DNA of 53,515 bases, filler included, from Jimgerdemannia flammicorona (taxonomy: Eukaryota), in assembly GCA_003990765.1 (NCBI GenBank). It is 2 parts of 2 records of this genome, joined end to end, with 100 filler letters (N's around TTAATTAATTAA, not from the genome) between each part and the next. Parts side by side here need not be neighbours in the genome. Positions count along the whole stretch, not along the records: positions 1 to 26,708 come from RBNJ01000702.1; 1 more part is not named here. One strand, 5' to 3'. The first letter of the stretch is position 1. Each line of letters opens with the position of its first letter. Of this stretch, positions 11 through 53,217 are shown one piece after another. The position numbers and the translations under genes are program-made. Below the pieces are notes generated by a model, which had not been told where the DNA came from, did not search any database, and saw nothing but the letters and a program-made list of their open reading frames with translations.

Positions 11-362
11 TCATCTTGCATGGTTCCTAAAGCACCTTCGTAACATCCTACCAGCGTGTGGAACATCAGAGTACCTCCAGGTAAGTGTGTCTGCCTTCAG
101 CAAGCGTAGATAGGTAGGGAGGTGATCGTTGCGATAAAATGATGAAGCAGGTTGGATATGTACGTCAAAATCCTCTTCGGTAACATAAATGATCCGTTCG
201 ACATGGGTTCCTTTGTTTTTGAGGTCCGGTACAACAACAATGATCTAGCCATCTTTCTCAACTTTACTATGATATGGATTAATATTTATTAACGATCCTT
301 ACGTTGTGGTTGGATTTATGCCGATTGTATTGTTGAGGATTGCGAAGGATGTGGGTTGTCAT
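11..362 (-). CDS. Possible small spliced host ORF of unknown function (exons 362-303 and 244-11, ~97 aa) in CpG-intact unique DNA
   Basis: CpG is retained in 1-~560, unlike the flanking TE DNA. GTAAG donor at 302 and TAG acceptor at 245 join two in-frame open segments (MTTHILRNPQQYNRHKSNHN / IIVVVPDLKNKG...). No recognisable domain. Confidence 0.22.
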
Positions 363-609
363 CGATTCGGTTTCATGACGTTATTCACGGCGTGAGGGCC
401 AATTTATCATATATATTCTTTTGTTGTATAATACTCCTTTGGGATACGGGAAGAGGCGATTTTATTGATAATACATATAACGTGAATTTACGTATACTGA
501 TCGCACTGTTTGGTGACGTCTCCTCGATGACGTCGTACATATCGAGTTGTCAACTGGTTATCAATAAGGATGTCATAGTTGGTTGTATTGGTTATGATCA
601 CATTTACTG

Positions 610-1325
610 GAATTGTTACTCCTCTGAAACATCCTGGATCTTTCCTAGAGGTGTGGCTCTTATATTATCCACTGTAACAAACATCAACTTAGTTATTTCT
701 TCAACCTCTCAATCTAGGCAGTCTGCTGCTTTCTTACTGAGAAGACATCCTCCTGCTCCAGTATCAATAATGGTTTTGAAGATTCTATCTTCAATCTGAC
801 AGGTTGCATAGGCAGAGGTCTTGTGATTATCTTCACTTTTTTCTCCTGAGTCTTCTTAAATATTATTGGTCTTGGTTATCTTCCAATCTTGCTCCTTAGT
901 TGTCTTAGTAAGTCTATATCTTATTTGCTATCTGAATGTGAGTATTTCTACTAGCTGACCAAAAGTTATGTTAACCTTTTATTGACTGAAGTCCTTGAAG
1001 ATGTCATACTTGAAAGTCTTGGTCTTATAAAGCTTCTTCTCTTTTTCTCCTTTACTGACTGAGATAGTTCCTCAAATAATATCTTAAACAGCCTGTTTCA
1101 GCTCTGTATCTTGATTCATTTTTTCATCTTGGCTTTCTGTAGCAGTTTCTATCTATTTTTCCATAGAGTTCTTCTTGAGTCTCTCTAGTGATCTCTTATA
1201 GGGTTGCTTGCAAATATCTTAACAGTCTCAGTAGAGTAGACTTCTCATTCTTCTTCATCCAATTCTCCAATCTCCTCAAAGATGATGATATTAGCCTGTT
1301 TCATATTTTGAGTAGTATTACTTGA
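610..1325 (-). mobile_element. Degenerate Ty3/Gypsy family B, gag-protease region (left part; host of the nest)
   Basis: Minus strand reads YDIFKDFSQ*KVNITFGQL and the aspartic protease motif KTIIDTGAGGCLLS (DTG at 757-765). It is continuous in frame with 24131+ across the CTGGG TSD (KHKAQ|SSNTTQN). Left boundary approximate. Confidence 0.8.
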
Positions 1326-1330
1326 CTGGG

Positions 1331-2844
1331 TGTAAGATGGTTGCTTTTTTAGAGTAACTGTTATATAGTTCTGAAAGAGTTTTTTGGAAGTTCTGAATAT
1401 TCTGGAAGACTGTTTTCTTAAGATCAAGATCAATTTTATATAGAGTATGTCCTCTATACTTATTGATTTCAAGATCAGATTGATATCTCAACCAAAATTC
1501 TTTTTCTGGACTAGTTCTGGATGTTCAGAATTTTTCATATTTTAGGAAGTTCAAGAAACTAAGACCAGCTTAGTTGAATTGGCATATTGCTGTAGATAAT
1601 AACTAATTAGAAAATTTCATAATGGGGTTAGGAGTGGGACCTAACAGGGAGTAGATTTACTTAAGAGTGGTTTGTGGATTATTAAATAAGTTTATTTGTT
1701 ATTTATGATATTGCTATACTAGGAGTAGTTGTATAAAGAGATATTGTGGGAAAGTACTCAGGAGTTGTGTTCAGATTGTTCAAGTATTCAAGTCTGTTTT
1801 AAGTCTAAGATTCTGAGGTCTAGGAGAGGGGGTATTTATACTAGTAAGGAGCTATCTGGACTATACTGAATATGAGTATAGCACTTAGTGCCTTATTGAG
1901 TTAAAATGCAGTCATATAATATAAGTGTGATCTGATATATCAAAGAATTGTCTGACTGCTGAGTTAGTTCACAGTCACATTGTATAAGGCTAATCTAACT
2001 ATACTATGACTGCTAAACTATCTATAGATTTAGATACTATCTGGGTAGTCTTCAATGATATCACCATTGATGACATTATCTCTAGCAAAGTCTGAGCAGT
2101 TTTCTGACCTCTGATATCATCAGTTTCAAAGGTATCATCACTTCTATCTCTTACAAGATTGAGGCTATTCTTGATAGTAGTGGTTGCATAAGGATAATAG
2201 GTCTTGGTTCTCTTTTTTTTTGGACTTCTGGTACATTTGTGAGGACTGGCCATCTTTGTCTAGGGCAAGAGCTCCCAATGTTATGGCTGGGAGTTCAAAT
2301 CTCTTGGAAATGATATTTTCTATAATCTGAGGCAATTTCTAGTAATAATATCTGTCACATAGATGGCTTGAGATTGGTTTCAATAATGTTGACTTTCTTG
2401 AGTTCAGATAAAGCATCTGTTACTCTCTAATGAAGGTGACACAGATAGAGCAAACAGAGTTGTTCAAATGTATTTTGCTTCTACTAAGTAATGAGATTTT
2501 TATATAGTTGTAGTATATCTTGGTCTTGAGTTAATAAGTGCAGTTTATAAACTTTTGATAGATGAGATAGAGTTCTTCTTATCTCAGTTTGAGTTTGGTA
2601 CTTTCAGTTTTCTTTTGTCATAGTACAGTATACCAAACTAGTTATAGAAGTTCAGAGTCAGTCTTATGGTTGTAGTACTTTTTCTAGTATTCTTATATCT
2701 TGGTGGTAGGTTCTCATGCTTACTAGTATATTTGTATAACCAGATGATCTCTTCAGTAACTTGTTTTGTAGTCTTGCATGTGGTTTCCAAATTAGTTCTG
2801 AGGATGACATGCGATTTTGGTGGCTTAGAGGTTGTGCACTTACA
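1331..2844 (-). repeat. 3' LTR of outer family-A element (1514 bp)
   Basis: TGTAAG start, CTTACA end, followed by the PPT complement ACTCTCTCCTTCT. Direct repeat of 22616-24125. Confidence 0.93.
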
Positions 2845-4054
2845 ACTCTCTCCTTCTTAGCTTTCAATGTCCTCATCAAGATCTTCTAATTTGATCTAGT
2901 GTTATTATACCATTTGGATAGTTCTTGTGACTGTATTTGTTGAGGATTTGTTCAACTTTGTATTCTTCTTAGTCATTAATAATGATAGGTATAGGTGGTT
3001 CTGTGGTTCAGTTTAGAAATGTGTCTCAGACTTTCTGAGGTAGTGGTCTGACATAGCTGTCAACTTTGGAAAAGTCTTCCTTAGAGTTCTCGGGTTCTTC
3101 TTTAGATAGGCAGATGGAGATGGCAAAGAGAGGACATTTCTTGGCCAATTTCTTGAGCTGTAGCTTATTGATATGGATGATCTTTGGTCCAGAGTCACTA
3201 GGACTGAGTGGGTCTCTTTTGCCTTATAGTTTGAAGTTGTGGCATCCTTTCTTGATGGTCAGCAAATGGTTTACCTAATCGATCATGGGGTTTTTTTGTT
3301 TTAACCATAGAGTCTCAAGGATGATCTCATTGTTAGGAAGTAGTACAATCTGGAGGGTAACATATACTTGGTAGTCACCAATTCGAAAGGGCAGATTGCA
3401 GACTTCCTTGCTAATAATATGTGAGGTTCCATCAGCTGTGGCAATTGCTTGAGTTTGTTGTACCAGAGAGGTGAAGACCTTGAGTCTGTTGGCCATTTCT
3501 TCATTGATAAAGTTGCCTGAGGTACTACTGTCTATCATAATCTTAACAGGTGCTCAATTGACAAAAGCCTGAAGTTGTAAGAGGGTTGCTTTTTAGAGTA
3601 ACTGTTATGTAGTTCTGGAAGGGTTTTCTGGGAGTTCTGGATATTCTGGAAGACTATTTTCTTATGACCAAGATCAATTTCATATAGAGTATATCCTCTA
3701 TGCTTATTGATTTCAAGATCAGGTTGACGTCTCAACCAAAGTCCTTTTTCAGACTAGTTCTAGATGTTTAGGATTTTTCATATTTCAGGAAGTTCAAGAA
3801 ACTAAGACCAGCTTAGTTGAATTGGCGTATCGCTGCAGACAATACCCAATTAGGAAATTTCATGATAGGGTTAGGAGTGGGACCTAACAGAGAGTGGATT
3901 TACTTAAAAGTGGTTTGTGGATTATTAAATAAGTTTATTTGCTATTTATGATATTGCTATACTAGAAGTAGTTGTGTGAAGGGATATTGTAGGGAAGTGT
4001 TCAGGAATGTTCTTGTGTATTCAAGTCTGAGATTCTGAGGTCTGGAGGAGGGGG

Positions 4055-4062
4055 TATTTATA
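4055..4062 (-). promoter_or_regulatory. Putative LTR TATA box (TATAAATA), conserved in all four family-A LTRs
   Basis: GTATTTATACTAG occurs on the + strand at equivalent positions (~1833, 4054, 18362, 23118), upstream of a conserved AATAAA in element orientation. Confidence 0.6.
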
Positions 4063-4251
4063 CTAGTAAGGGGCTATCTAGACTATACTAGATGTGGATG
4101 TAGCACTAAGTGCTTTGCTGAGTTGGAATGTAGTCACATAGTACAAGTGTGATCTGACATGTCAAGAGATTGTCTGGCTGCTGAGTCAGTTCACAGTTAT
4201 ATCATACAAGACTAATCTAACTATACTATGACTGCTAGGCTATTTATGGGT

Positions 4252-5349
4252 TTAGGCACTATCTGGATAGTCCTCGATGACATCACTATTGATTGCATCA
4301 TCTCTGATAAAGTAGTCATCTAGGAAGAGTGGTTTGCGGATTACTTCTCCTTGTTTGCTGAGGTAATAATACATTGGAACTTCATCTCCATCCCATAAGA
4401 TGGCATTGTCTGTCTCATATGTTGGATAAGGTATTGGTAGGCAAAGGAGGGGTGCATCGTCTTCACTTTCATTGGATTCACTATCTACATACCTTCTATA
4501 GGTTACAGCATTATGAGTCACAGGGTTGTAGTAAGCTGGTGGCTGTGGTTCATGTTGCTTGTACTCGGATGGTGGAGTGGTTGGTTCAATCTCGAGGGTT
4601 GTCTGGAGGTACAGGTTGTGTTCTCTGGTCTCTTCATTGTAGTTGAAGTAATCAGGAGTGAATACAGATTGGTATTCATATCAGTGGTCATTGTCCCAAT
4701 AAGTTTTGTATGCTGTTATGAATTGTTGTAAGTTCATCGGCAAGATTGGCAGTGTGATCAGGGTTGGCAGAGATCCTTGGCTAGAGGTCATGTCGGTGTC
4801 AGAGGGATCATTATCTTCTACTTTATCTTCATCGAAGTGGATTATATTGTAGATATTCTTCATGGTATATCCAACTTGGGGCATTTGCAGGATATGATCA
4901 TTGGGGTGTGGGAAGATTCTGTCTGTGGTTTCGATGTACTCAAGGTACTTGTGGTTGAGTTCTTGTATCATGTCATCAATTTGGCCATAGGACAGGGTAG
5001 TGACCATTTCACTGGTGGTAACTCAGAGGCATGGAATAATGGTACTGTACTCATAGAAGAGTTCTCAATGTTTGCGGGCGATGAGCTTCTGGTGTTGGGA
5101 CATCTGGGTAATATCTGTATTGTGGTAGTACTTGATCATATCTTTCAGGAGGTGGTCAATCTAGTAGTAGCTTGAGATTTGTCCAATTTAGTGGGCCTCG
5201 CTAAGCATGTTTAGAGCATTCCATCAGGCTTCCATGAAGTAGAGGGGTGCTAGGCTATGGATATTCATGAGGGGCAGAGGGAGTGTGGCTCTGTTGACAA
5301 TGGCATTCTAAATGTCAGCATAGATATGGGTATAGATCTCAGTGGTCAT
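4252..5349 (-). pseudogene. LTR(U3)-encoded accessory ORF, ~365 aa, unknown function
   Basis: A single frame runs from ATG 5349 to TAA 4252 (1098 nt) with 7 internal stops. Six of them are sense codons (W,R,R,Q,R,W) in the sister LTR copy. ORF-track fragments 4681..5007 and 4252..4521 lie in this frame. Confidence 0.8.
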
Positions 5350-5637
5350 GTTTGTGTGTTTTGGAAGTTATAGTTGTTGTTTGTTTTGGTTCTCTGATTT
5401 GATACGTCTTGGTGCTCGGTATATATGCATTTGATCCTAATTGGTAAGATTCCATTTGTATAAATCTTGTGTTCTGTGACTTCATATTGACTCAGCTTTG
5501 TGCACTGTAAATTCGGTTTGACTTAGCTTCATGATCCAGCAGGTGATTTCCAGATTGTTCAGAGGTTGCATGTGATTTTAGTAGCTTGTTCAGAGGGTGA
5601 TGTGTAATTTCGGTGGCTTGGAGGTTATACGCTTACA

Positions 5638-5650
5638 ACTCTCCCCTTCT
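5638..5650 (-). other. Polypurine tract of inner family-A element
   Basis: AGAAGGGGAGAGT on the minus strand immediately precedes the 3' LTR. Confidence 0.88.
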
Positions 5651-5850
5651 TAGCTTTCAATGTCCTTATCAGGGCCTTCTAATTTTATTCAGTGATATAG
5701 GAAGAATAGGCTTGCTTTCAGTTTTGCCATTTTTTCCAGAGGGTCAGTATTCTTGTCTTGTTTTACTGAGTTCTTGGTTTGGTTTACAATAATTATAATG
5801 TTCAGGAAAATAATATATAGTATATACAGATAGGTGCGGAGTATTTCGTT

Positions 5851-6543
5851 CTAGTTGTTTAAGGAATCATATTCTTGAACTAGGTTGGTAGCATTCTGGA
5901 GATTGGTCTTGGGTTCCCAGGTTGCATTGTGGATTGGATAACCTTTCCATTTGACAAGGTACTCAGGGTGGCTCTTGTTGCTACATTTATTGAGGATTTG
6001 TTCAACTTCGTATTCTTCTTAGTCATTAATAATGACAGGTGCAGGTGGTTTGATGGTCCAGTTTGGAAATAGCTCATCATCATTCTCATTGTATTGCTTG
6101 AGATATTGAACATTAAAGACTGGGTGAATCTTAATAGTATCCAGTAGTGCCAATTTGTAGGAGGTTGGAGAGACTTGTGCAATAACTTCAAATGGTCCAA
6201 TGAACTTGCTGTTTAGCTTTGTAGATGGTCTGTGCTTGAGGTTATCAACTCAGTATCCTCTGATGTCCAGTAGAACTTTTTCTCCAATATCAAAGGTTTC
6301 TTCTCAGCAGTGTTGGTTAACATACCATGACTATTGTTCTTGAGCTCGTGATAAATTCTCAATAGCAATCTGGCTTAGGTTGCACATTCGAAGTAAGAAT
6401 TCTTCAACAGCTTTGACTGTGGAGGGTTCTTCAGTGGTTCAGATAAGTGTCAAAGGGGTGTTTGGGTTTTGTCCAGTGTTGGTGAAGAATGGGGTCATTC
6501 TGAGAGAGGCTTGCTTGCTATTGTTATAGGCAAACTCAACTGC
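5851..6543 (-). pseudogene. Integrase C-terminus and chromodomain of inner family-A pol
   Basis: Translates as AVEFAYNNSKQASLRMTPFF...FIGPFEVI...IHPVFNVQYLK...EYEVEQILNK...EYLVKWKGYPIHNATWEPKTNLQNA (GPY/F region plus canonical chromodomain). Internal stops present. Confidence 0.92.
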
Positions 6544-6638
6544 CACTGGGAACAGTCATCTCTTTCCAGTACCATTCAGGTTATACAACCTTTGGAAGGC
6601 ACTTTCAACTTCGTTTTCAGCAAAAAGAGACTAACAAC

Positions 6639-8664
6639 ATAGCAACCGACAGACAACCTGAGGTGCGTACTGAGCAGGGCGGCCCTAGTGCTTTCGACTG
6701 GCAGCAGGTGGGGAGGGGGCCAGACCTGGGGGGAGGTATGAGGGGCCTGCTGGTGGGTGGATGTGGAAGGGGTAGAGGAGGTGGTGGAGGATCAGGATCT
6801 GAGAGGGCAAGCTTCGTGGAGATGATGAAGGGGAGACAGCAGGTGTCGGGGCTGGAGGGCTGGCTGAAGAAGGGCAAGGAGACTAAGAAGGTGACGGTGC
6901 CAGGGGGTGCGACTCTTAGAAGGGGGGGCGGTGGAGTGGCAGGAGTAGTGGCTGGGGGGGGTGTGACTGCTGATGGTGTTGGGACTGTCGATCTGGAAAA
7001 AAATCCAGATGTGATGGCTGATGGCGAGACTGAGCGGCTGAGGCTTAGAAGGCAAGGGGACTTGGCAGATGGTGTAACAGGTCTGGCGGTGGCTCCATTA
7101 CTCAAGAAATCGATTTTGGCATTCGTGGTCACACTATGCTTCCGGGGCCTGGTGGTGATGGCGAAAATGGTACTCGGGCTCATCGCTAAGCAGGTGGTGG
7201 GTGCAGCATCTGTGAAGTTTTTGAAGGAACTAGAAGGAGTGGAGGTGGGTTTTGAGGAGGCGGCACCACTGGAGGAGGTGCTGAAGGTTGGATTGGTGGT
7301 TGGGGAGGTATGTGTTCCTATGGCGCAGTGCCTGAAGTGGGACCCCAGGGTGATCCAACTGCTGGTGAAGGGAGTACCAATGGTGACAGTAATGGAGATG
7401 AGGAAGAGGGTTGAGGAGTTCATGGCGGAATATGGCGAGGTGGTAGATATTGGGTTCAGGGTCTGAGAAGGGACCTTGCTCAGGACTGGTGACATGGATG
7501 TGAGAATTTGGCTGGCTGAGAAGGAAGCCACTGGGAAGGCAAGGGATTGGCCTTCAGCGATGGTCTGGGGAGCAATCCTGTATAAGGTGACAAGGGTGAA
7601 GGGGAGTGAGGAAGAGGAGGAGGATTTACTGGAAGCACTCGAAGAGCTGGGGGGGGGCTGTAGAGAGGCGAGCGAAGGCTTGGGAGGCTTTTGAAGAGAT
7701 GACACACTTAGAGGTAGTGGATGAGAAGCGGATTCGAGTGACTAAGGAGCAGTGGGAAAGGGCTCAGGGGTGTAAGAGGCAGAAGGAGCTGCTGGCCAAG
7801 CTGGATAGCAGACCACTGGGGGAGGCGAGCAAGGTGAAGGGCACAGGGGGAGCTGGAGCGAGTGTCTGGGCCGGTGAGGGGGAGGGAAAGGACAAGAAGG
7901 AGGCGAGGGAGGACAAGAAGAAGGCTGGGAAGGACCTGTATGCAGATGGTACACTGGAGGTGTGGGAGGAGGACTGGGTGGGTTCCCCTACCCCTACCCC
8001 TCTCATCAGGCATGGCCCAGCTTCCCGGAATAAGGTGGTGGAAGATGTGCCAATGCAAGGGGCCCAGAGGGTGCAATTTGGAGTTCCAGAGGTGGCGTAT
8101 GGGGGACGGGTGGAGGCGGATGGCGAGGAGGAACTGGTGGATGTCCCGGAAGTATGGGATGAGTCTGTAAGTGCTGGAGCTGATACCACAATGTTGGATG
8201 GAGAGAGGCCGGTGACTCCAGAGGGGAAAGAGGTGGGGAATTTGCTTTGGATGTACCGGATGATAAATAACCTGGTGGCAGAAGAGCTGAGAGAAGTGGA
8301 CTTGCGAGTGATGAGTGATGAGCATTGGGTAGGAATACTGCAGGAGGATGGCATGATGAAGGCATTGAAGGCAGAAATTCTTACAGTGTACCTGGAGGAG
8401 GAAGGATATGAGGTGGATAAGGAGAGGGAGGAGGAGATAGCGGTTGTTGCTGGAGAAAGGGCTGAATACTGCTGGAACAAGCGACATGGACTACAGCTCT
8501 GGCAGGAAGCATGCATTGAATACCGAGAGGAGTTTGAGGAGAAGGCCGATGGTGAGATGAATGAACTACTGGCTGGATTGGAGGCTCAGAGGGCTGAAGA
8601 GGAGGAGGTGGCTGCGGAACATAATTTGGACAGGACACAGGAGGAGATGAGCATAGAGCAGTAG
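6639..8664 (+). pseudogene. LINE copy 1 ORF1 (RRM-like nucleic-acid-binding protein), disrupted
   Basis: Colinear with the intact 640-aa ORF1 at 44125-46047. Start codon decayed ATG>ATA at 6639, W>TGA at 7464-7466, and a frameshift around the G-run at ~7649-7658. Confidence 0.85.
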
Positions 8665-8697
8665 AGGCAGATTGACAACATCACATATATAATTAAT

Positions 8698-11600
8698 ATG
8701 AACAGTACAACCAACATTCTCTCTTTGAACATGAATGGGTTACGGGGCACTTCTCGACGTAGGAACATTTTTACTTGGATGAAGGGATTGGAGGCCGATC
8801 TCTTCCTCTTGCAAGATGTCTAGTGCGAAGATGACTCTGATAGGTTAGAATGGACAAAGGAATGGGGAGGTGCGGCGATTTAGAGGGGCAAGGTTGGGAT
8901 TTTGGTTAGGAAAGGCAGAGGGGAGATACAGGATGTACAGTACTGGGGGGAGAGGCTGGTCTGGGGAGAGTGGATTTGGGTAGGCTGGGAGCCAGTTACA
9001 GTTGGTTCCTGCTACTGCCCTGCAGTACGGGGTGAGAGGGTCGATTGGGTGAAAGGCCTACAGGAGAGTGGATTACTTGTGGAGGCCGGGGTGGATGTGC
9101 TAGGGGGAGATTTCAATATGGTTAGGGATATTCTGCTGGATAGATCAGATGGAGAACGAGGTGCTGGGAGCAGGTGTGGAGGGCTGATGGCATGGGAGGA
9201 AGTAGAGAGGCTGAGTGCACTATTGGATGCTGGAAGGGAGTGCTGGGGGAGTAGGAGAGTCTATACACATTGGGCAGGGGGTCTGGGGACTAGAATCAAT
9301 TGGATTTTGACAGCTTGTTGCTGGGGACTGGATGTTTGGAAATCATTGGAGGTGGAATGGTGTCTATGGTCGGATCACTGGGGGCTTTTGGGACAGGGGT
9401 GCTTTGGGGGAAGTGGGGATGGGCCTGGACATTGGCGCCTCAATTCCTCTTTGTTAGATGACAAGACCCAGTGAGATGAGTGGGCTAAAGACATTCAGCT
9501 GAGGGTGGAGACCTGGAGGCAGGAAGGGGCTGTGGTTAGGACTTGGTGAATGAGGATGAAAGAAATGGCCAGGATCTACTGGAAGGAGGCTGGCAAGGAG
9601 GCAGGGAAGCAGCAAAAACAAAGAGTGTGCTGGGCCTCTGCTAGATTGACGAGGCTCCTGGAGGAGTGGGCAAGGCTGACGATGTTGGAGGGAGAAGAAG
9701 ATTGGAGATTAATGAGGGCGAAGATGGAGGTTGGGGAACTTCAACAGGTGCTGCAGGAGGAGGAAGAGGCAAGGGTACAGAGCTTGGCAGCACAGCTTCA
9801 TTGGCAGGATCTGGAGGAAGGAGAGAGGCCTTCCAAGCTTCTTATAAGGGCCCTTAGGGCGAGGCAGGTCCAGCAATGGTGGGAAGGGGTATTGGACTCT
9901 GATGGTGTACTGGTGCATAGTGTACAGGACATTCTTGGTTCGCTGAAGGAGAGATGGAGTAGATTGTAGAGTGAGGAGGAAGGTGGGGCAGATGCCGTTA
10001 CAATTGAACGAACATTGGAGGATTGGCACCCACCACAAGTCAAAGGGCTAGGGGACCTGGTGATGCCTGTACAGGAGGGTGAGATCCACCAGGTTCTTGC
10101 CACGACAACGTCCAGTATGGCACCTGGGGAGGATTGGCTGCCCTGGGACTTTTGGAAGCAAATGGTTGAAGTCCCAGGGGTGATGGGAGAGATGACAGCA
10201 TTGTGTGACCTTATTCTACAGACAGGTAGATAGGTGGGGGAGCAGGACCTTGGGCTGGTGACACTGCTCTACAAAAACAAAGGAAGGCAGGAGAATTGGA
10301 AGAACTGGCGGCCGATAATGCTACTAGATATGGACAAAAAGTTGGTAACCAAGGTGGTGGTGGCAAGACTACAGAAGGTGGCCCAGCAAGTCGTGGGTGT
10401 TGAGCAGAGGGGATTTGTGGGTGGTCGGCTCATCAGGGATAGCACTGCCTGGGTGCATGGCATCATCGAAGGGGTGAGGGCATGTGGACTGGATGGGCAT
10501 CTAGTTTTCTTGGACCAGGAGAAGGCTTACGACTGGGTGCGGAGAGTCTGGCTGGAGAAAGTTTTGGATAGAATGGGGGTGTCGCTTCAATTCCAGTCAA
10601 CAATGGTCAGCCTACTGGAAGGGAGTAGGGCTGCACTCATGTGTAATAGACATAGAGGGGTAGCATTCCCCTTGGGAAGGGGAGTGCCCCAGGGGGATCC
10701 ATTGTCCCCCATTTTATATGCTCTTTCTCTGGAACCACTTATGGACCGGATTAGGCGGAGGATAGTGGGGCTCTCTGTCTTTGGCATAGGATGGAAGGTT
10801 GGGGCCTTTGCTGATGACATAGTGGTGGGCTTGGGTTCGATTGCTGATGTTGAGAAGCTCAAGAGGACTGTGGAGTGGTATGAGGAGCATTCTGGAGCTA
10901 AGCTGAATTGGCATAAGTGTGAGACAATGGTGCTTGGTAACAGCCTGGTGGGAGGGGAGGTTATAGGAACAATTGTCCCCACCGGTGAAGCAGTGCGGTA
11001 CTTAGATATCTACTTGTCAGTCTATGGGTCAGTTCTGCCCAAGCTTTGGTAGGAGCAGAGGATTGGAATCTGGGAGGAGGCTCTGCAGAGTTGGGGGGGA
11101 AGACATTTTTCTCTGGTAGGGTGGGTCTTGATTTTGAATATCTACTGGCTGCCAAAGTTGTGGTATCTGGTGTATCACCTGGACTTCCCAGCCTGGGTAG
11201 TGAAGAGATTGATGAAGTCGGCGAAGGGATGGATTTGGGCTGGCAGGCGGAGTCAGATTAGTTGGGAGACCCTGTCCCTACCAGTGGCAAGAGGTGGTCT
11301 TGAGCTGGTTGACTTCCCGAAATGGTTACACTGCTTGAGAGCGTGGTGGCTGAAGAGGGCGGTGGAGTTGAGAGGAGGTGGATGGGTTCCTCTGTTACAG
11401 AAGATATGGGAGAGGCAGACATCGCCAAGGGGCTCAACTGGTGATCTCCTCTCCTTGGTTGGGCTTCGGAACACTGCCCAACTACGGTATAAAGAATTTT
11501 GGTAGAGAATTGCAGAAGGAGCGTACCGCATCAGCATTCGTTGGCAGGGGAATGAAGGTGAGGAGGATTGGGACCTGGTGATGTGGAGATGGGACCATAT

Positions 11601-12374
11601 ACTGTTAGGTGGTGCTCCTTTAGTTGAGTTCGACATTAGTGAGAGAATAGAATGCCAAAGGGGACCAGGCCAGGATCTGTGGCCTAGCAGTTGGCAAGGA
11701 GTTGGAATTGGCAAGGAGTGGAACTAGCGTAGTGTTTGGACCTGGAGTGCTGCAGTGAGAGCATGGCTGCCACCAAAGTACTGGGTGGTCTGGTGGCACA
11801 TGCTGTGGAGGAATGTTATGCTCAATTTTCACTTGGGGCACCTGGTTGTAGGGAGCTGCTTCGACTGTGAGAAGTGCCATAATGTAGGGCAGGAGGGGGG
11901 TTATGTACAGACGCCAGAACATTGGCTAAGAGAGTGTGAGGTGTTGGGGGAATTTTGGCGGACAATTGGGGATCGCTTAGGGGTATGGGGTAGGAGTGAT
12001 GGGGTACAGGGGCGATGGGAGGACTTGTGGGTTAGATTGGTAGGGGGAATAGGGATGAAGTGGCTCACTTTAGGTTGGGCTTTGGCAATTTGGGTGGGGT
12101 TGGCCAGTCATTGGCTATTTGTTTTTGAGGATGGGAGAAGGCAGAGCTTGGAGGACTGGCTGCTGTGATGGCATAGGCTTATGGAAGATACCTTAACAGG
12201 CTGGTGGCTGGGTTGGGGGATGCAGAGTAGTTGGAGGCACCACTTGGTAGAGGAAATCTGTGGGCAAAGTGGGGGGAGAGTGGGGGTTGTTGGTGAAAGG
12301 GTGATTTTCATTCGTGAGGAGGTAGGGAGGGGCCCCCTGGTGGGGATTGGATAGTTGGTTGGATTGATGTATAA
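8698..12374 (+). pseudogene. LINE copy 1 ORF2 (APE endonuclease, reverse transcriptase, C-terminal CCHC), disrupted
   Basis: APE motifs SLNMNGL, LLQD, GGDFN and SDH. RT motifs APGED, WRPIML, FLDQEKAYD, GVPQGDPLSP and AFADD. C-terminal CEKC...EHWLREC. Many TGG/CAG-derived stops. End coordinate approximate. Confidence 0.92.
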
Positions 12375-12413
12375 TTATTCATAGACTGGTAATAAAGGCG
12401 GAGTCCAAGTGAC

Positions 12414-12470
<57 letters not shown>

Positions 12471-12476
<6 letters not shown>

Positions 12477-15400
12477 AACTGCAGTGAGGTGTTCATGCCA
12501 GTCATCTTGTTTGTAGGAAACATAGTTCCTTAGCATTTGTTCCAGAGTTCGGTTCATTCTTTCAGTTTGGCCATCAGTTTCTGAGTGAAAGGTTGTGGAT
12601 AGTATAAGTTTTGTTCCAAGGTGTGTATGGAGGGCTTTTCAAAAATGGCTGGTGAATTTTGGGTCTCAGTTACTAACGATGATCTTGGGAAGACCGTGAT
12701 AGTGGAAGATGTTGTCAAACAAGAGTGTGGCTATGTCTGGTGCTGTTGCAGTAGTGGTAGTAGGCACAAAATGGGCTTGTTTGCTGAGATAGTCTATAAA
12801 GACAACAATTGCATCTTTCCTATTCCTGGTTCAGGGTAGTTGTACAATGAAGTCCATAGAGATTTGTTCCCAATTTGTAGAAGGTACTGAGATAGGGTAA
12901 AGTAAGCTGGGTTTTGCTAGTGTTGAGGACTTGTTTCATTGGCAGGCATCACAGGAAGTGATGTAGGTTTTGAGCTGATCTGCCATATGGGGCCAATAGA
13001 AGTTTCAAGAGATAACTTCATAACATTTATCAAATCCTAAATGTCTAGCTGTAGGGGCATCATGACATTCAAATAGGATAGTCCTTCAGAGGTCTTGGTT
13101 GTTTGGGACATATAGTCTGTCTTTGTAGTAGATAGCATTATCCTTTAGTTGGTATTGATAATACTGTGTATACTTGTCAGCATCATCACTATTCAGGATT
13201 TCTCGCAGTGCTTGAGCTTTCTTATCATTGGCACATGCTGTGATAATTTGTTCCATGATGGAGTTTGTAACCAAGGTGAGAGTTTGAATAACCTCTTCAA
13301 TTGGTGGTCTGGAGATTGCATCAGCAACAATATTTTCCTTGCCAGAGTGGTACTGGATTTCATAGTCAAAGTTGGTGAGGACTTTCATCCATCTGGCTTG
13401 CTTTCAAGAAAGGGTAGCCTATATCTTGATATTGACTAATGATTTGTGATCAGTCAATATAGTGAAGTGTGCTCCTTCTAGGTAGGGTCACCATTTGATC
13501 AGAGTATCTATGATGGCTAGCATTTTCTTCTTGTGGGTTACATAGTTAATTTCAGTATCATTGAACTTGTGGGAGTGATAGGCCACAGGGTGTCCTTCTT
13601 GCATGAGTACTGCTCCAAGGGCTAGGTCAGAGGCATTAGTGGTAACTTCATATGGCAGTGCAGGGTTTGCCGCTTGAAGTACTGGAGTGGTTATCAGGGC
13701 ATTCTTTAGTGCTTGAAAGGTAGTATCTTGCTCAGGTCCCTAAGTTACAAGATTGTTGAAGTCTTTCTCTTGTTTTATGGTCCAGGGTTGCTCTTGTTTC
13801 TTGCTATGCTTGGTCATTTGAGTGAGGGCAGTAGCGATTTTAGCAAAGTTGACAACAAATTGCCTGTAATAGTTTGCTAATCCCAGGAATGACTGGAGGT
13901 CTTTCAGCTTCTTGGGTCTGGGCCAATACTTAATTGCAGAGATTTTGCTAGGGTCCACTTTGATTTCATTTGGAGTGACAATGTGTCCAAGGAATTGAAT
14001 TTCTTTCAGGAGAAATTTGCACTTGCTGAGTTTTGCAAAGAGTCAGTTTTCTTGGAGTTTCAGTAGTACTAGTTCAAGGTGTTCAAGATGTTCCTCTAGG
14101 GTTTTGCTGAAGACTAGGATGTCATCAATGTAGACAACAATGAATTTGTCCAGGTATGGATGCAGAATGGTATTCATCAGTGTCGGGAAGATTGCTGGAG
14201 CATTAGTTAAGCCAAAGGGCATAACCAGGAACTCAAAGTGTCCATAGCAAGTTTGGAAAGCTGTCTTGTAGATGTCTTCTTCTTTCATAGCAATTTGTCA
14301 ATAGCCATTTCATAGGTCAAAAGAGCTCATGAATTGTGGGTTGGTAAGTCTATCAAATATTTCATTGATCCTCAGTAGTGGGCAACAGTTCTTGATGGTC
14401 TGTTCATTGAGATCGCGGTAGTCAATGCACATTCGCAGGTCTCCTCCTTTTTTCACAACAAAGAGGACTGGTGCGCCATAGGGTGATACACTGGGTCTGA
14501 TGAATCCTTGTTCTAGGAGTTCATCAATTTCTTTCTTGAGTGCATCGATTTCTCTCAGAGACATATGGTAGATTGACTTGAAGGCTGGTTTGGCATCTGG
14601 GATAGTCTTGATGGCATGGTCTACCACTCGTTTAGGAGGTAGGCCTTTTGGGAGTTTCTTTGGAAATATGTCTTGAAATTTCTGGAGTAGTGGTCTGACA
14701 TGGCTGTCAACTTTGGAAAAATCTTCTTCAGAGTTCTCAGGTTCTCCTTTGGATGGGCGGATGGAGATGGCAAAGAGAGGGCATTTCTTGGCCAATTTCT
14801 TAAGTTGTAGCTTGTTGATGTGGGTAATCTTTGGTCCAGGGTCACTAGAATTAAGTGGATCCTTCTTGTCTTGCAGTTTGAAGTTGTGGCATCCTTTCTT
14901 GATAGTCAGAGAATGGTTTACCCAATCGATCATAGGGTTCTCTTGTTTTAACCATAGAGTCCCAAGGATGATTTCATTGTTAGGAAGTGGTACAATTTGG
15001 AGGATAACATGTACTCAGTAGTTGCCAATTCGGAAGGGTAGATTGTGGACTTCTTTGCTAATAATATGTGAGGTTCCATCAGCTGTAGCAACTGCTTGAG
15101 TTTGTTGTACTGGAGAGGTGAAGACCTTAAGTCTGTTAGCTGTTTCTTTACTGATGAAGTTGCCAGAGGCACCACTGTCTATCATAATCTTAACAGATGC
15201 TCAGTTGACAAAAGCCTTAAGAGTGAGCAGTTTGTCTGATCCAATGGTGGTGATTTCAGTTGTAGGAGCTTTCCTTCTATTGGTTCTTCTTTGTGCTAGT
15301 TTATTGACATAAGAGAAGCAATCATCAATCATTCGAGAAGAGTACATTCTAATGTCATGAGGGCATCGGCCACTTGGTACATATCCATCTTCAATCTTCT

Positions 15401-17845
15401 TGTAGAATTGTTCTTCTTTACTCATGGTAGGTTGAGTTGGGGCCTTGTTTGATGAGCCAAATCCTTTGGATCCTTGGATGGTGGGCAGTAGTTCAGGGAC
15501 TTCCTTGACTGTCAGGGTTGACTTGATTTTTTCAAATAGGATCTGGGCAATGCAGAAACCAATAGAGATCTTGAAGGGTGTCTAACTGTGGTTTCAGATG
15601 AGGACAATAATTTCGCCTGTATAATCCTCATCAATGACTCCTCCTTCTACTGAGAGTCCTTTCAATACTAGGCTGCTGTGATAGCATATTCTTCCAACAT
15701 GTCCTTCAGGAATTTGGATACTGATTCCTGTGTAGACTTATTTGACTTCTCAGTTGGAAACTGTAGCTTCTTTGGCTGCATACAGGTTATATCCAGCTGC
15801 TTTCTGACTTCCTTTGATTGGGGCCTTAGCAGTTTATCTTAACTTGACAAAGTTCAGTGTTCTGGTGGTCAGATTGTTGAGGTGGTGCAGAGTGGTAACA
15901 GTTGCTCTTGTTGCTGTTCGAGATTTTCAGTTAGGGCAGGCACTGGCCATGTGTCCTGTCTTTTGGTAATAGAAGCATGCTCCACTTCTTCAAAGTTCAT
16001 TCCTTTCACCTTCAGTAAGTTTCTTGAAGGTACTTGGCTGGATAGGTTCGTGATTTCTAGGTGTCCAAGAGGTGGATGTGGAGGGAGCTTGGGATGCTTC
16101 ATGCTTGGGTTCTTCTTTCTTAGTCCAAGTCTTTTCCTTATTGTTGAATTGTCTTCAGGGCAGAATTGGTCCAGCTGTTAGGATTCACTTGACCATAGTC
16201 TTGATTCTTGCCAGGCACCATTGTTGGTGATCACAACCAACTAGGCAGCCTTGTTCTTGGATTTTTCTAGTAAGCCATTCAGGTAGGGCATCAAATAAAT
16301 GGTCTGCTCTTATACCATTTCATGCTTCATCGTTGGCGATATATCCTAGGCCAACAGTATTTAGGAGTGACTTGAGTTTTGTACAGAAGATTTCAAATTC
16401 TTCTTTGCCATATACATCAAATTTGAGGTTGCGGAGTTTTACTCGAGATTCAGCGATCATGGTTTTGCTGTAGTATTGAGCAATCATAAGTTGTTTGAGT
16501 CTAGGGGCTGCAGGATGGGCTCCATATCCTGGGGTATTGTTTGCTGCATTCTGAGCAACTACTACAGGTTGGGTATCCCATGTGAGGGGTTTTTCAGAAA
16601 AGGTTCGCCACCATTCTTCGGCAGGTCCTCAGAAGAATATAACAACTCAGCAGACATAGGCTGTAGTGATAGCAAAGAGTTGTTCCAGTGTGTGGTCTTG
16701 ATTGTTTGTCAGAATGCAGTCAGCAACTCGCTCATTAGTCCATTGATTGGCTTTAAAGTTGGTGTCAACTATACTAATGAAGCTTTGGACTTCTTGTGTA
16801 GTACTATTGAAGGTAGGTAGGCTCAGATTTTTTGTAGGTCAGGTCTGTTCAGCTAAGGCAGTAATGGTTGCTGCCATTATAGCTACTTGGGCTGTGAGAT
16901 CAAGAATCTGTTGGTTCACTATATTATTTGCTGGAGGCAGTTGGACTGCTGGTAGTGGTGTTACTGGTACTACTTGAGGTACTGGTGTAGAGTGTGATGG
17001 GGTTCTTTGGGTCTGTGTAAATTGCTGGAGTAGTAGTTATGGGTCTGGAGTGAGGGCTTGATAGATAACTGTTTGTTGCTGTGTAAGTATATTCTGTCCT
17101 GATGGAGGTACTTCTCCTTCAGTGATATATCTGGAATCGAATTCACTGAGATACTCCTCCTCTTCTTCAGTTTGGTCCCCATGTAATTGAGTTTACTTGG
17201 CATCAAAGTAGATAGAATCAGTTGTATATCTGATTTTGGATGGACTTAATTCAAAGTCAAGTTCAGGTTCGGTATTGGTTTCAGATTCAGGTAGAGCTAT
17301 AGCAGGGCCTGCTTCAGGTTTAGGGTTAGGTAGTTGATGAAGGATTTCTCTTGCTTCTTCTTTAAGAATATGGTGGGCCTTACTGTTCTGGAATTGATAG
17401 TATAATGCGGTCTTAGTCCTGGTATGGTGAAAGTTGGTAGAGTTGAGCCACTTGGCTACAGAGGCTTGGGCTTCATGAGGAACTAAGGCTAGGAAGACTG
17501 CTGCTGGTTGTCCTAGGTCACTCAGATTTGTAGAGCTGACAAAACTCTTGTTGAGAAGAGTAAAGAAGGCTTCAATAAGACCTTCTTCATCTTGACTTGC
17601 TGGGTGTAGTGCAAGGAGTTCGGTGAATAGAGTTTCATCTATTTGCTGGTTTAACTGAAGTACTTCTTTCTTTGAATGAAGTTTATCCCACTTGTTGCAG
17701 GTGTGGAGGTCAAATTGTTCTTGTATATCAGGTTCAATTCTCTCCAGATTGTCAGATGGTTCAGGATAAATTCCAGTTCAAAGGTTGGGCTTTATACCAA
17801 CTTGTAGGAATTCTCAGAAGGGTTTGTAGTGGGGTGAGGAAGCAT
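12471..17845 (-). pseudogene. Inner family-A gag-pol (gag with CCHC knuckle, dUTPase, protease, RT, RNase H, integrase N-terminus/core), disrupted
   Basis: Knuckle ACFYYQKTGHMASACP (~15935-15985). PR MIDSGASGNF (DSG 15171-15179). [43 protein letters not shown]...TDHKSL. IN ECHD...HLG...SCDACQ and [20 protein letters not shown]. Start position approximate. Confidence 0.94.
15450..15857 (-). pseudogene. dut: dUTPase domain between gag zinc knuckle and protease (inner family-A copy)
   Basis: All five trimeric dUTPase motifs are recognisable: AAGYNLYA, (R>H)SSL, GGVIDEDYTGEI, GF(R>C)IAQ, (R>Q)GSKGFGSS. Confidence 0.92.
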
Positions 17846-17869: not shown

Positions 17870-17881
17870 CTGCTGCTACCA
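17870..17881 (-). other. Primer-binding site, probably initiator tRNA-Met
   Basis: TGGTAGCAGCAG lies 3 nt inside the 5' LTR. TGGTAGC is complementary to the GCUACCA-3' end typical of tRNA-iMet. Confidence 0.75.
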
Positions 17882-17884
17882 AGT

Positions 17885-19944
17885 TGTAAGAGGGTTGCTT
17901 TTTAGGGTAACCATTATGTAGTTCTGGAAGGATTTTCTGGGAGTTCTGGATATTCTGGAAGACCGTTTTCTTGTAGCCAAGATCAATTTCATATGGAGTA
18001 CATCCTCTATGCTTATTGATTTCAAGATCAGGTTGACATCTCAACCAAAGTCCTTTTTTGGACTAGTTCTGAATGTTCGGAATTTTCTATATTTCAGGAA
18101 GTTCAAGAAACTAAGACCAGCTTAGTTGAATTGGTGTATCGCTGCAGACAATACCCAATTAGGAAATTTCATGATGGGGTTAGAAGTGGGACCTAACAGA
18201 GAGTGGATTTACTTAAGAGTGATTTGTGGGTTATTAAATAGGTTTATTCGCTATTCATGATATTGCTATACTAGGAGTAGTTGTGTGAAGAGATATTGTA
18301 GGAAGTGTTCAGGAATATTCTTGTATATTCAAGTCTGAGATTCTGAGGTCTGGGGGAGGGGGTATTTATACTAGTGAGGGGCTATCTGGACTATGCTAGA
18401 TGTGGATGTAGCACTAAGTGCTTTGCTGAGTCAGAATACAGTTACATAGTACAAGTGTGATCTAATATGTCAAGAGATTGTCTGGCTGCTAAGTTAGTTT
18501 ACAGTTACATCAAATAAGGCTAATCTAACTATACTGTGACTGCTAGGCTATTTATGGGTTTAGGCACTGTCTGGGTAGTCCTTGATGACATCACCATCAA
18601 TTGCATCATCTCTGATGAAGTAGTCATCTAGGAAGAGTGGTTTGTGGATTACTTCTCCTTGTTTGCTGAGGTAATAATACATTGGAACTTTGTCTCTATT
18701 CCACAAGGTGGCATCATCTGTCTCATATGCTGGATAAGGTGTTGGTGGGCGAAGGAGAGGTGCATTGTCTTTACTTTCATTGGATTCGCTGTCTGCATAC
18801 CTTCTGTAGGTTACAGCACTATGAGTCACAGGGTTGTAGTAAGCTGGTGGCTATGGTTCATGTTGCTTGTACTCGGGTGGTAGAGTGGTTGGTTTGATCT
18901 CGAGGGTTGTCTGAAGGTACAGATTGTGTTCTCTGGTCTCTTCATTATAGTTAAAGTAATCAGGGGTAAATGCAGGTTAGTATTCGTGCCAGTGGTCATT
19001 GTCCCAATAAGTCTCATATGCTGTTATGAATTGTTGTAAATTTATCAGCAAGGTTGGCGGTGTGATCAGGGTTGGCAGAGATCCTTGGCTAGAGGTCATA
19101 TCAGTGTCAGAGGGATCATTGTCTTCTGCTTCGTCTTCATCGAAGTGGATTATATTGTAGATGTCCTTCATGGTATATCCAACTTGGGGCATTTGCAGGA
19201 TATGATCATTGGGGTGTAGAAAGGTTCTGTCTGTGGTTTTGACATACTCGAGGTACTTGTGGTTGAGTTCTTGTATTATGTCATCAATTTGGCCATAGAA
19301 CAGAGTAGTGACCATTTCACTGGTAGTAACTCAGAGGCAAGGAATAATGGTACTATACTTATAGAAGAGTTCTCGATGTTTGTGGGTGATGAGTTCTGGT
19401 GTTGGGACATCTGAATAATGTCTGTATCATAGTGGTGCTCGATCATATCTTCCAAGAGGCAGCCAATCTGATAGTAGCTTGAGATTTGTCCAATTCGGTG
19501 AGCCTTGCTAAGCATGTTCAGAGCATTCCATCGGGCTTCCACGAAGTAGAGGGGTACTAGGCTATGGATATTCATGAGGGGTAGAGGGGGTGTGGCTCCA
19601 TTGACAATGGCATTCCAAATGTCAGCATGGATACAGGTATAGATCTCAGTAGTCATGTTTGTGTGTTTTGGAAGTTGTGGTTACTGTTTGTTTTGGTTCT
19701 CTGATTCAATGTATCTTGGTGCTCAGTATATATGCATTTGATCCTGATTGATAAGATTCCATTTATATAAATCTTGTGTTCTGTGACTTCATATTGACTC
19801 AGCTTTGTGTACTGTGACTTCAGTTTGACTCAGCTTCATGATCAAGCAGGTGATTTCCAGATTGTTCAGAGGTTGTATGTGATTTCAGTGGCTTGTTCAG
19901 AGGGTGACATGTAATTTCAGTGACTTGGAGGTTGTGCACTTACA
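17885..19944 (-). repeat. 5' LTR of inner family-A element (2060 bp)
   Basis: TGTAAG...CTTACA termini. Direct repeat of 3576-5637, with differences overwhelmingly transitions. Confidence 0.95.
18560..19656 (-). pseudogene. Second copy of the LTR-encoded accessory ORF
   Basis: MTTEIYTCIHADIWNAIVNG...DYPDSA*. One 1-nt deletion near 19394; its stops are mostly at different codons from the 3' LTR copy. Confidence 0.8.
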
Positions 19945-20176
19945 GAAGTATAAGCAGTTTGTCTGATCCAATGATGGTAATTTCAGTTGTAGGAGCTTTC
20001 TTTCTATTGGTTCTTCTTTGAGCCAGTTCATTGACACAAGAGAAGCAATCATCAATCATTTGGGAAGAGTACATTCCAATGCCATGGGGGCATTGGCCAC
20101 TTGGTACATATCTATCTTTAATTTTCTTGTAGAATTGTTCTTCTTTATTCATGGTAGGTTGGACTGGGGCCTTGTT

Positions 20177-20584
20177 TGATGAGCCAAATCCTTTGGATCC
20201 TTAGATAGTAGGCAGTAGTTCAGAGACTTCCTTGACTATCAGAGTTGACTCAATTTTTTTGAATAGGATCTGAGCAATGCAGAAACCAATAGAGATCTTG
20301 AAGGATATCCAACTATGGTTTCAGATGAGGACAATAATTTCACCTGTGTAATCCTCATCAACGACTCCTCCTTCTACTGAGAGTTCTTTCAATGATAGGC
20401 TATTGTGACAATATATCCTTCCAACATATCCTTCAGAGATTTGGATACTGATTTCTGTATAGACTTGCTTAACTTCTTAGTTGGAAACTATAGCTTCTTC
20501 AGCTGCATATAGATCATATCTAGCTGCTTTTTAACTTCCTTTGGTTGGGGCCTTAGCAGTTTGTCTTAACTTGACAAAGTCCAG
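20177..20584 (-). pseudogene. dut: dUTPase domain of outer family-A copy
   Basis: Colinear with 15450-15857. Reads AARYDLYA, GGVVDEDYTGEI, CIAQ, GSKGFGSS. Confidence 0.9.
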
Positions 20585-24125: not shown

Positions 24126-24130
24126 CTGGG

Positions 24131-26708: not shown

Positions 26709-26808
26709 NNNNNNNNNNNNNNNNNNNNNNNNNNNNNNNNNNNNNNNNNNNNTTAATTAATTAANNNNNNNNNNNNNNNNNNNNNNNNNNNNNNNNNNNN
26801 NNNNNNNN
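26709..26808. other. Artificial contig linker/gap (N44-TTAATTAATTAA-N44)
   Basis: Exactly 100 nt, symmetric, with a central 12-mer that has stops in all six frames. Confidence 0.97.
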
Positions 26809-33885: not shown

Positions 33886-34495
33886 AGTGCTTTATGAAAT
33901 TCTCGGACGGAAAGCAACAGAGGTCACATGCTTTTGAATTTGCCCTTATATAATTACAGTGTGCCAATCAAAAATCTCATGGTACCACTCTCGACGTCGG
34001 TTATAGAGTAGCTCCACGTGCCGTGACTGAAGTAGGAATAGCAATAGGTATTACGGGTCAAACCTGTGTAACCTTGCATAAATACAATTTGCCAAATACA
34101 TCGTTGTTCCTCTTCCGCTTCGCTGCAATCCTGCAACTAGCGACTTCATCCCGTTTTCGCACCCTCCCACCTCCCTGTTTACTGTATTCTACCTGTCGGG
34201 TTCGCTTATGCCGAACTGACCATTCGCCACGCAATGTCGATATTCCGACTTGCTGCGATATTCCCCAAAATAAATCAAAACATGTATACAATGTAGTTGC
34301 GAGGGACACGAGAGTTGATAGACATTATATGGGGCGCAATTTTTCAAAAGGTGCCTTATGGCCTATCAGGATTAGTGCCTTTTTGAAAAATTGTGTCCCA
34401 TATAGTCACCACTCGCCTGTTCACACAAAAGTCGGCCTACCTCTCCCCCTCTTTGCGCTTCACCCTCGGCTTCGGCTCCAACGCCCCAAACTGCT

Positions 34496-38924: not shown

Positions 38925-39230
38925 TGATAACTGGCAACTGAACCCTTGGATCTTTTGCCACTTCCTTTGGTGGGGCCCTATCTCTTTAGATCTTTTTATA
39001 TCTCAGATAATAGTCCAAACTCCCCTCTTTTATAGTTACTGGGTAGATCTCAAGGTCATAAAGATAGATATATTTTAATACCCCTGACTGGCTTACAGAG
39101 TATATACCAACTTGCCCTGGATTCTCATTAATTATATCCTATATAAGGTCAAGACAGACTGCTGCCAATATCTCATTCTCATTATACTATTCTGAATATA
39201 GTAGAGCTGGTAACTCAAACTTCTCAACAT
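38925..39230 (+). pseudogene. DIRS DNA N6-adenine methyltransferase-like domain
   Basis: WQLNPWIF...WGPISLDLFIS (cf. DLFAS) and YTNLPW at 39103-39120 (cf. YANPPW), directly after RNase H. Confidence 0.8.
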
Positions 39231-44093: not shown

Positions 44094-44124
44094 ATTGAAA
44101 GAATGTTGATTTGGCGACCCCAAC

Positions 44125-51714: not shown

Positions 51715-51720
51715 ATAGCC

Positions 51721-53215: not shown

Positions 53216-53217
53216 TC

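Follow-up and report, generated by a model that had tools for sequence, protein, structure and literature searches.

Accessory genes housed in long terminal repeats (LTRs) are known from a few retroviruses. In the betaretrovirus mouse mammary tumour virus (MMTV), the U3 region of the LTR contains a whole accessory open reading frame (ORF), sag, of ~320–370 codons, which lies in the sense orientation upstream of the LTR promoter elements and encodes a type II membrane protein. Lentiviral nef and foamy-virus tas/bet are 3' accessory genes that run into U3, and tas has its own internal promoter as well as an acidic activation region. Almost all papers retrieved by a literature search on ORFs in LTRs concern MMTV. 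Here, we describe a candidate counterpart in a Ty3/Gypsy retrotransposon of Jimgerdemannia flammicorona, located in a stretch of 53,515 nucleotides from assembly GCA_003990765.1 (hereafter, the window). Both LTRs of this element carry the same reading frame of 366 codons, and the evidence supports a U3-resident accessory gene in a chromovirus, encoding an orphan protein.

Extra genes outside the LTRs have been described for several groups of LTR retrotransposons. The available portions of the respective papers report additional ORFs (aORFs) in plant elements (PMC7264820), ORF3s in bdelloid elements (PMC5408684), brtn as an additional ORF of Botrytis BcGypsy1/Boty (PMC8365987) and an 'add. ORF' in fungal elements (PMC2864245). 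Like these and the env-like ORFs, the frame described here is a lineage-specific extra gene with no assigned function on an LTR retrotransposon. It differs from them in location, as theirs, in the portions available, occupy the stretch from the 5' LTR to gag or that from pol to the 3' LTR, or run antisense. The Botrytis gene brtn is said to be antisense. Wording for an ORF inside the LTR is absent from the accessible text of the plant aORF review (PMC7264820). No Ty3/Gypsy element whose LTR contains a complete ORF came to light in a literature search covering few subscription journals and no Repbase, which leaves such absence unproven.

With regard to the carrier, the accessible text of PMC2864245 lists the dUTPase chromoviruses PosPlaTy3 (Postia placenta), elements of Phanerochaete chrysosporium, and Tmt1 (Tuber melanosporum). 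As in these, a chromodomain Gypsy element here has a dUTPase in its polyprotein, between gag and the protease (PR), and such positions are reported in the same text. The comparison was made by description only and shows one difference, in that no LTR-borne gene is described for them there.

Judged by analogy, MMTV sag would be the closest functional parallel, followed by nef and tas/bet. Like sag, the frame is a complete sense ORF in U3, upstream of the TATA box; both LTRs carry it, and it is related to none of gag, pol and env. Unlike sag, it shows no sequence or fold kinship (no Pfam family at E ≤ 10, a best E of 0.27 against PDB and of 1.3 with Foldseek); its product lacks a hydrophobic anchor, its carrier is a chromovirus and not a retrovirus, and its host is probably no vertebrate. 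With nef and tas/bet it shares the position of a 3' accessory gene in the LTR and, with tas specifically, a dedicated upstream promoter and an acidic region, both putative here. Those genes, however, only overlap U3, whereas this one lies wholly inside it, and there is no likeness to them in sequence or predicted fold.

The U3 reading frame, its carrier and its decay

Self-comparison of the window, together with its direct-repeat families, revealed two related LTR retrotransposons, nested and on the minus strand. The frame occurs in both LTRs of the inner one.

4252–5349, minus strand: LTR gene, 3' LTR copy; ATG at 5349, 366 codons, 7 internal stops, no frameshift, TAA at 4254–4252
18560–19656, minus strand: LTR gene, 5' LTR copy; codon 88 followed by a 1-bp deletion; stops at codons 109 (common to both copies), 227 and 269
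3576–5637, minus strand: 3' LTR of the inner element, 2062 bp, TG..CA ends
17885–19944, minus strand: 5' LTR of the inner element, 2060 bp
4055–4062 (read 4062→4055), minus strand: TATA box of the LTR main promoter, TATAAATA, the same in all four LTRs of the window
3934–3939 (read 3939→3934), minus strand: poly(A) signal AATAAA in R, the same in all four LTRs
5639–5651, minus strand: polypurine tract (PPT) AAGAAGGGGAGAG, adjoining the inner 3' LTR
17870–17881, minus strand: primer-binding site (PBS) TGGTAGCAGCAG, 3 nt after the inner 5' LTR
3571–3575, with a second copy at 19945–19949, minus strand: 5-bp target-site duplication ACTTC flanking the inner LTRs
12474–17777, minus strand: gag, dUTPase, PR, reverse transcriptase (RT), RNaseH and integrase (H2C2) of the inner element in a single unshifted frame with 30 stops in 1768 codons
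5890–6543, minus strand: remainder of the integrase (SH3_Tf2-1) and chromodomain of the inner element, 5 stops in 215 codons

The original prediction had placed the same sense ORF upstream of the TATA box in both ~2.06-kb LTRs, and both copies were located there, in U3. The ORF occupies LTR positions 289–1386, and its stop lies 190 nt upstream of TATAAATA, so that it is wholly contained in U3. It is not in the internal region, the usual place of extra ORFs, as the PPT and the LTR start (5637) precede the ATG by 288 nt and the ORF is repeated in the 5' LTR. The ATG at 5349 is taken as the start because in-frame stops occur a few codons 5' of it in both copies. Given a gene inside U3, each insertion carries two copies and each solo LTR keeps one, and the predicted spread of the ORF with every solo LTR follows from this position. 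Translation from 5349 to 4252 bore out that the 3' copy is free of frameshifts across 366 codons. Its internal stops are at codons 14 (TAG), 42 (TGA), 54 (TAA), 63 (TAG), 95 (TGA), 109 (TGA) and 223 (TGA). The codon-by-codon comparison also agreed with the earlier count: six of these seven are sense codons in the 5' copy (TGG, CGA, CGA, CAG, CGA and TGG), and the TGA at codon 109 is the sole internal stop common to both, those at codons 227 and 269 being private to the 5' copy. Overall, the two gene copies are 89.8% identical with one 1-bp gap.

The frame is far more open than expected by chance. It has 8 stops, compared with 24.9 ± 4.6 per frame in dinucleotide shuffles, and none of 2000 shuffles contained any frame with 8 or fewer. 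When the stops common to both LTR copies were used to approximate the state at insertion, this frame retained two (one internal, one terminal), the other sense frames 16 and 24, and the antisense frames 4, 22 and 19. The codon-aligned antisense frame was tried as the true frame and rejected on this count, with four common stops compared with the one internal stop of the sense frame. An internal control is provided by the gag-pol of the element, since this must have been intact at insertion: the stop density of the LTR frame (7 in 365 codons, 1.92 per 100) is like that of gag-pol (30 in 1768, 1.70 per 100, and 5 in 215), which argues that the LTR frame decayed as a gene would that was still open on insertion. 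Its codon positions also resemble those of pol, with G at 0.24 in position 1, A at 0.43 and G at 0.09 in position 2, and C at 0.36 and G at 0.13 in position 3. Elsewhere in the LTR, no three-base periodicity is seen. The host kinase exon, the only host exon compared in the window, is unlike the LTR frame in having a position-3 G of 0.27. The LTR frame is very probably a real, selected gene, and the best explanation overall is that it is likely to be a genuine accessory protein gene of a dUTPase chromovirus, residing wholly in U3. This is also the part of the original accessory-factor proposal that stands, the anti-silencing or regulatory function staying hypothetical: openness, relatives and composition argue for a real, element-borne protein gene present in both LTRs.

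The inner element is, by its read-through domain order from gag and dUTPase to the chromodomain, a dUTPase-carrying chromovirus (Ty3/Gypsy, Metaviridae) on the minus strand. With X placed at stops, Pfam recognized in one frame and in order gag-asp_proteas (9e-11), RVT_1 (2e-32), RT_RNaseH (3e-28), Integrase_H2C2 (8e-18), SH3_Tf2-1 (2e-16) and Chromo (6e-17). The dUTPase (PF00692, E 2.7e-29, profile 3–128 of 129) lies between gag and PR at 15200–15830 on the minus strand. This single gag-pol frame is kept over ~1980 codons despite 35 stops. The N-terminal stretch of gag (17193–17777, minus strand) is open for its first 194 codons after the PBS and has no Pfam match. By blastn, the LTR pair aligns from 3572–5637 to 17881–19944 with 90.6% identity over 2067 columns; the limits used here (3576–5637 and 17885–19944) were set by the TG..CA ends together with the ACTTC target duplication, PBS and PPT.

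The stops themselves have a common origin in the mutation spectrum, as all seven in the 3' copy are products of C→T or G→A changes. Between the two inner LTRs there are 189 transitions, 4 transversions and 2 indel columns; the outer LTRs differ by 163 transitions, 6 transversions and 6 indel columns, and the inner and outer internal regions by 308 transitions and 28 transversions. The dead gene still reads in frame because indels are nearly absent. Per-site C→T rates are 0.81–1.0 at CpG, 0.29–0.41 at CpA, 0.19–0.35 at CpC and 0.04–0.12 at CpT, the values for the inner LTRs being 0.81, 0.29, 0.19 and 0.04, with 35 of 43 CpG sites differing. Decay of CGA to the TGA of codon 109, as originally suggested, is reasonable, since the relative P0003 (described below) has Arg there and most CpG sites differ between the LTRs. 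An account by CpG decay in general, however, is too narrow: the process is a general C→T/G→A hypermutation with the order CpG > CpA > CpC > CpT. The TA/AT index of 0.82–0.85 is below the threshold of 0.89 quoted in the accessible text of PMC8365987, and the preference for CpG first differs from the order in Neurospora repeat-induced point mutation (RIP). The spectrum appears RIP-like, and methylation-driven deamination of repeats would fit equally. It seems, then, that C→T/G→A hypermutation directed at repeats, of either kind, has inactivated the gene and gag-pol alike. An intact frame at insertion had been thought probable, and this agrees with the single common internal stop and the Arg at its position in P0003; read from the two copies, the gene would have been intact, or one codon short of intact, at integration, and both copies in the window are now dead.

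Elsewhere in the window, at 36000–40000 and 46200–53515, the observed/expected CpG ratio is 0.03–0.06 and TA/AT is above 1, and these stretches are probably older, more heavily C→T-mutated repeats.

Relatives, selection and the predicted protein

When 1.84 billion representative proteins were scanned with HMMER, four matched at E ≤ 0.001, two of which are true relatives. P0003 (128 aa, from a 1180-bp JGI metagenome contig) covers residues 1–128 uninterrupted at 80% identity; it has W, R, R, Q, R and R at the six N-terminal stop positions, with R at the common codon 109. P0002 (247 aa, from a 998-bp ENA metagenome contig) covers residues 115–364, likewise uninterrupted, at 60% identity with two in-frame 2-residue gaps. 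Agreement with one or other LTR copy extends to 115 of 128 positions in P0003 and 168 of 247 in P0002. The other two matches, the plectin-repeat protein P0004 (E 7e-13) and the bacterial repeat protein P0005, were discounted as chance similarity inflated by repeats, with one 40–70-residue stretch matched many times. Further word-indexed searches of 5.8 billion clustered proteins, using near and shorter lengths and a profile, added nothing to P0002 and P0003.

In place of the ratio of nonsynonymous to synonymous substitutions, selection was gauged by two simulations on window codons 115–365. Under neutral drift to the same amino-acid identity, the frame stayed open in 0.8–4.6% of 1000 simulations per setting, with the transition bias varied. 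Among the 97 replacements relative to P0002, 51 (52.6%) are BLOSUM62-positive, compared with 30–34% under neutral drift conditioned on openness, and none of 400 conditioned simulations reached 52.6% at any of three transition biases. This replacement-pattern simulation is free of the ascertainment of open frames, and the conservative replacements point to purifying selection on the LTR protein between subfamilies.

The gene and LTR family is abundant in soil-metagenome runs. Parts of the LTR occur in ten of the 11 public runs listed, and eight of these ten are soil metagenomes; the four runs aligned at 80% likeness yielded from 258 to 3298 short contigs each. With the mutation spectrum and the dUTPase chromoviruses reported from fungi, this occurrence makes a soil fungus the likeliest host, and host-gene introns of ~100 nt are a further hint. 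The ESM Atlas taxa for the non-LTR retrotransposon of the window were mixed (Arthropoda, Basidiomycota, Ascomycota and Cnidaria). In run X1, 319 of 343 variable places are transitions. At the position of the codon-14 stop, the sense letter accounts for essentially all depth in all four runs, as seen among the 40 of 590 variable places viewed. In run X6, which is guessed to be RNA, the contig depth over R/U5 (window 3736–3987) is 40–400 times that over the gene-bearing U3; R/U5 is common with the gene-less LTR family, and contig depth is no measure of expression. The contig depth over the internal stretch 5752–5900 is low compared with that of the LTR and is unusable as a copy ratio.

The predicted protein belongs to no Pfam family at E ≤ 10, and the PDB sequence search reached a best E of 0.27. 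The ESM Atlas gave no feature match, with a structure template-modelling (TM) score of ≤ 0.30, and its P0002 model has a predicted local distance difference test (pLDDT) value of 0.39. The earlier description of a helical N-terminal and an acidic C-terminal part is consistent with the five helices modelled for P0003 and with residues 141–365, which have a pI of 4.15, 41 D+E compared with 12 K+R, 13% aromatic residues and 10% proline. The N-terminal third (~residues 1–140) is probably helical and the remainder acidic, rich in aromatic residues and proline, and disordered. No hydrophobic or membrane segment was found (maximum 19-residue Kyte–Doolittle mean, 1.04); this and the lack of a Pfam match uphold the view that the protein is kin to neither gag/pol nor env. 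Structure prediction with Foldseek, proposed for a consensus, was carried out on the natural P0003 fragment: the search of PDB returned generic helical bundles only (best E 1.3, TM ≤ 0.36), from a model that is itself of low confidence. The acidic tail recalls acidic activation domains, and this likeness is the sole basis for guessing at a regulatory role; that the LTR protein is a transcriptional regulator, as its composition would predict, is on present evidence unlikely.

Expression, origin and competing explanations

Upstream of the gene, within the same LTR, lies a promoter-like module.

5420–5444, minus strand: promoter-like module in distal U3, by motif reading only; CCAAT (5444→5440), 13 nt, ATATATA (5426→5420)

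Between ATATATA and the ATG lies a 70-nt leader, A/C-rich and devoid of ATG, which puts TATATA 71 nt upstream of the start codon. The 5' LTR copy (19727–19751) keeps ATATATA and the leader, and in place of CCAAT has TCAAT, a single C/T difference of the decay type. It is quite possible, if tentative, that the gene has its own promoter, which stays putative here. The proposed mechanism would make each LTR a self-contained transcription unit in which the distal promoter drives the leader and the ORF, transcription reads through the main promoter, and the LTR's own AATAAA terminates the unit. Alternatively, the gene would be expressed as the 3'-terminal cistron of a spliced or subgenomic RNA, like MMTV sag. 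The protein itself would be a helical N-terminal domain carrying an acidic disordered tail (pI 4.1) of the acid-activation-domain type, and as a best guess may serve as a regulator or adaptor whose target is either transcription of the element itself or a host factor. The full proposal, in which every LTR (5', 3' or solo) is a self-contained gene for a lineage-restricted trans-acting protein, used for instance to switch on the main promoter or to engage a host factor, and the sag/tas solution was invented independently in a non-retroviral Gypsy element, is somewhat unlikely.

The strongest competitor concerns expression. Here, the gene would be expressed in the manner of sag or nef, from the 3' LTR only, and would form the final cistron of an RNA, either spliced or subgenomic, that starts at the main promoter, with CCAAT/TATATA being incidental. 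This is the known solution for retroviral U3 genes, the U3 of the 3' LTR is present in every genomic RNA, and A/T-rich motifs come cheaply in C→T-mutated sequence of 40% GC. However, the module is found in both LTRs, its spacing is the classical one (CCAAT and TATA 13 nt apart, then 71 nt before the ATG) with no intervening ATG, and it is part of the same block as the ORF. Expression from the 3' LTR alone is a serious possibility, although not the probable one.

The origin of the gene can be approached through the outer, related element.

1331–2845, minus strand: 3' LTR of the outer element; partner at 22616–24126

The outer element (1331–3574 and 19953–24126) is split by the inner one at a point matching inner 15221/15226. 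It is a deletion derivative in which everything between RT and the chromodomain is gone, RT being joined to a chromodomain remnant at ~2846–3012. Its LTR shares with the inner LTR the first ~72 nt and the last ~750 nt, including the gene's last 18 codons and stop, and so keeps both LTR ends, promoter, R and U5. The central U3 differs: ~680 nt of unrelated, closed sequence take the place of gene and module, so that the CCAAT/TATATA-leader-ORF block, present in both inner LTRs, is absent as a unit. The outer LTR was also considered as a second subfamily of the gene and rejected, as only the last 18 codons are kept and the frame has 24–31 stops. The gene was either gained in one lineage or lost in the other, and loss would be slightly favoured because the gene's 3' codons are common to the gene-less LTR.

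These comparisons bear on the possibility that the block is a passenger, that is, a cellular gene or retrocopy taken into U3 by one lineage as a promoter-like module with an intronless ORF, and for a while a rider of no use to the element. Such a capture would explain why a sister LTR with the same ends has unrelated sequence instead, why the block brings its own CCAAT/TATATA and why the ORF is unrelated to known retroelement proteins. However, no cellular homologue was found among the 1.84 billion representatives or 5.8 billion clustered proteins, and the G-poor codon-position composition is like pol and unlike the only host exon in the window. Further, the frame of the relative that is 60% identical stays open, its indels being in frame and its replacements conservative, which would not be kept in a useless rider, and the presence of the last 18 codons and stop in the gene-less LTR is fitted at least equally well by loss from a gene-bearing ancestor. 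Passenger capture is accordingly judged improbable.

That the block is a piece of some unrelated transposon, nested in the founder's LTR, is more improbable still. The wholly different central U3 of two otherwise related LTRs is what such an event would leave. Yet Pfam at E ≤ 10 shows no transposase, RT, gag or other transposable-element domain; the block is a full ATG-to-stop unit on the element's sense strand and of the element's own composition, and the gene's 3' end is common to the sister LTR. Finally, it is scarcely credible that the frame is a chance opening in a G-poor strand (the sense strand is only 14% G, making TAG and TGA rarer) or the shadow of a codon-aligned antisense frame (which has just 7 stops), given that no shuffle reached 8 stops, that the antisense frame has four stops common to both copies compared with one for sense, and that periodicity, relatives and replacement pattern are all contrary.

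Several observations weigh against the preferred reading of a genuine accessory gene in U3. The only two relatives are both partial and come from short metagenome contigs (998 and 1180 bp). DNA of other gene copies was found neither in metagenome contigs (queried with the alignment and P0003) nor in viral contigs (queried with P0002) or genome contigs (queried with the alignment). The open-frame simulation is subject to ascertainment, as protein databases list only open frames. Among the 11 public runs listed, none recorded as RNA carries the LTR stretch. The gene is missing from the LTR of a closely related element, the outer one, so that at least some lineages can do without it. No confident fold was obtained either, as AlphaFold2 reached a pLDDT of 31.9 for the whole protein (3-row alignment) and of 51 for the natural N-terminal 128 aa of P0003 (predicted TM score 0.46, five helices). 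With no family or structure match, the proposed activity is read from composition only.

Other features of the window and wider meaning

Two related, diverged non-LTR retrotransposons are present in the window, one of them interrupting the inner element.

6544–12473, plus strand: non-LTR retrotransposon inside the inner integrase gene; G-rich, RVT_1, ~5.9 kb
40347–46200, minus strand: second, diverged non-LTR retrotransposon, with long open frames of 662 and 488 aa left

The first ends in a 57-nt poly(A) at 12417–12473 and has its own target duplication of ~10 bp. Both have 52–56% GC in a setting of 36–40% GC, a very G-rich and C-poor sense strand with G of 0.46–0.51 at codon position 3, and a 662-aa ORF1 without Pfam match; the Gypsy sense strand is opposite in bias, being C-rich and G-poor. 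A host protein-kinase gene at 32400–33900 on the minus strand (GC 46–49%) consists of several short exons, which match the Pkinase profile at 13–95, 105–140 and 141–201 in different frames and are separated by introns of ~100 nt. Positions 26709–26808 (88 N) form the join between the two parts of the window.

It is by their accessory genes that complex retroviruses differ from simple retroelements, and LTRs are usually regarded as regulatory DNA and nothing else. If the reading proposed here is true, retrotransposons can use the LTR as coding space, a gene placed there is duplicated at each insertion and outlasts internal deletion by persisting in solo LTRs, and genes can be overlooked in annotation when LTRs are masked as non-coding. 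If, further, each LTR is a gene, solo LTRs would amount to a dispersed multigene family. The LTR protein offers a concrete, testable candidate for a retrotransposon-encoded regulator in a host, probably a soil fungus, whose repeats are strongly mutated.

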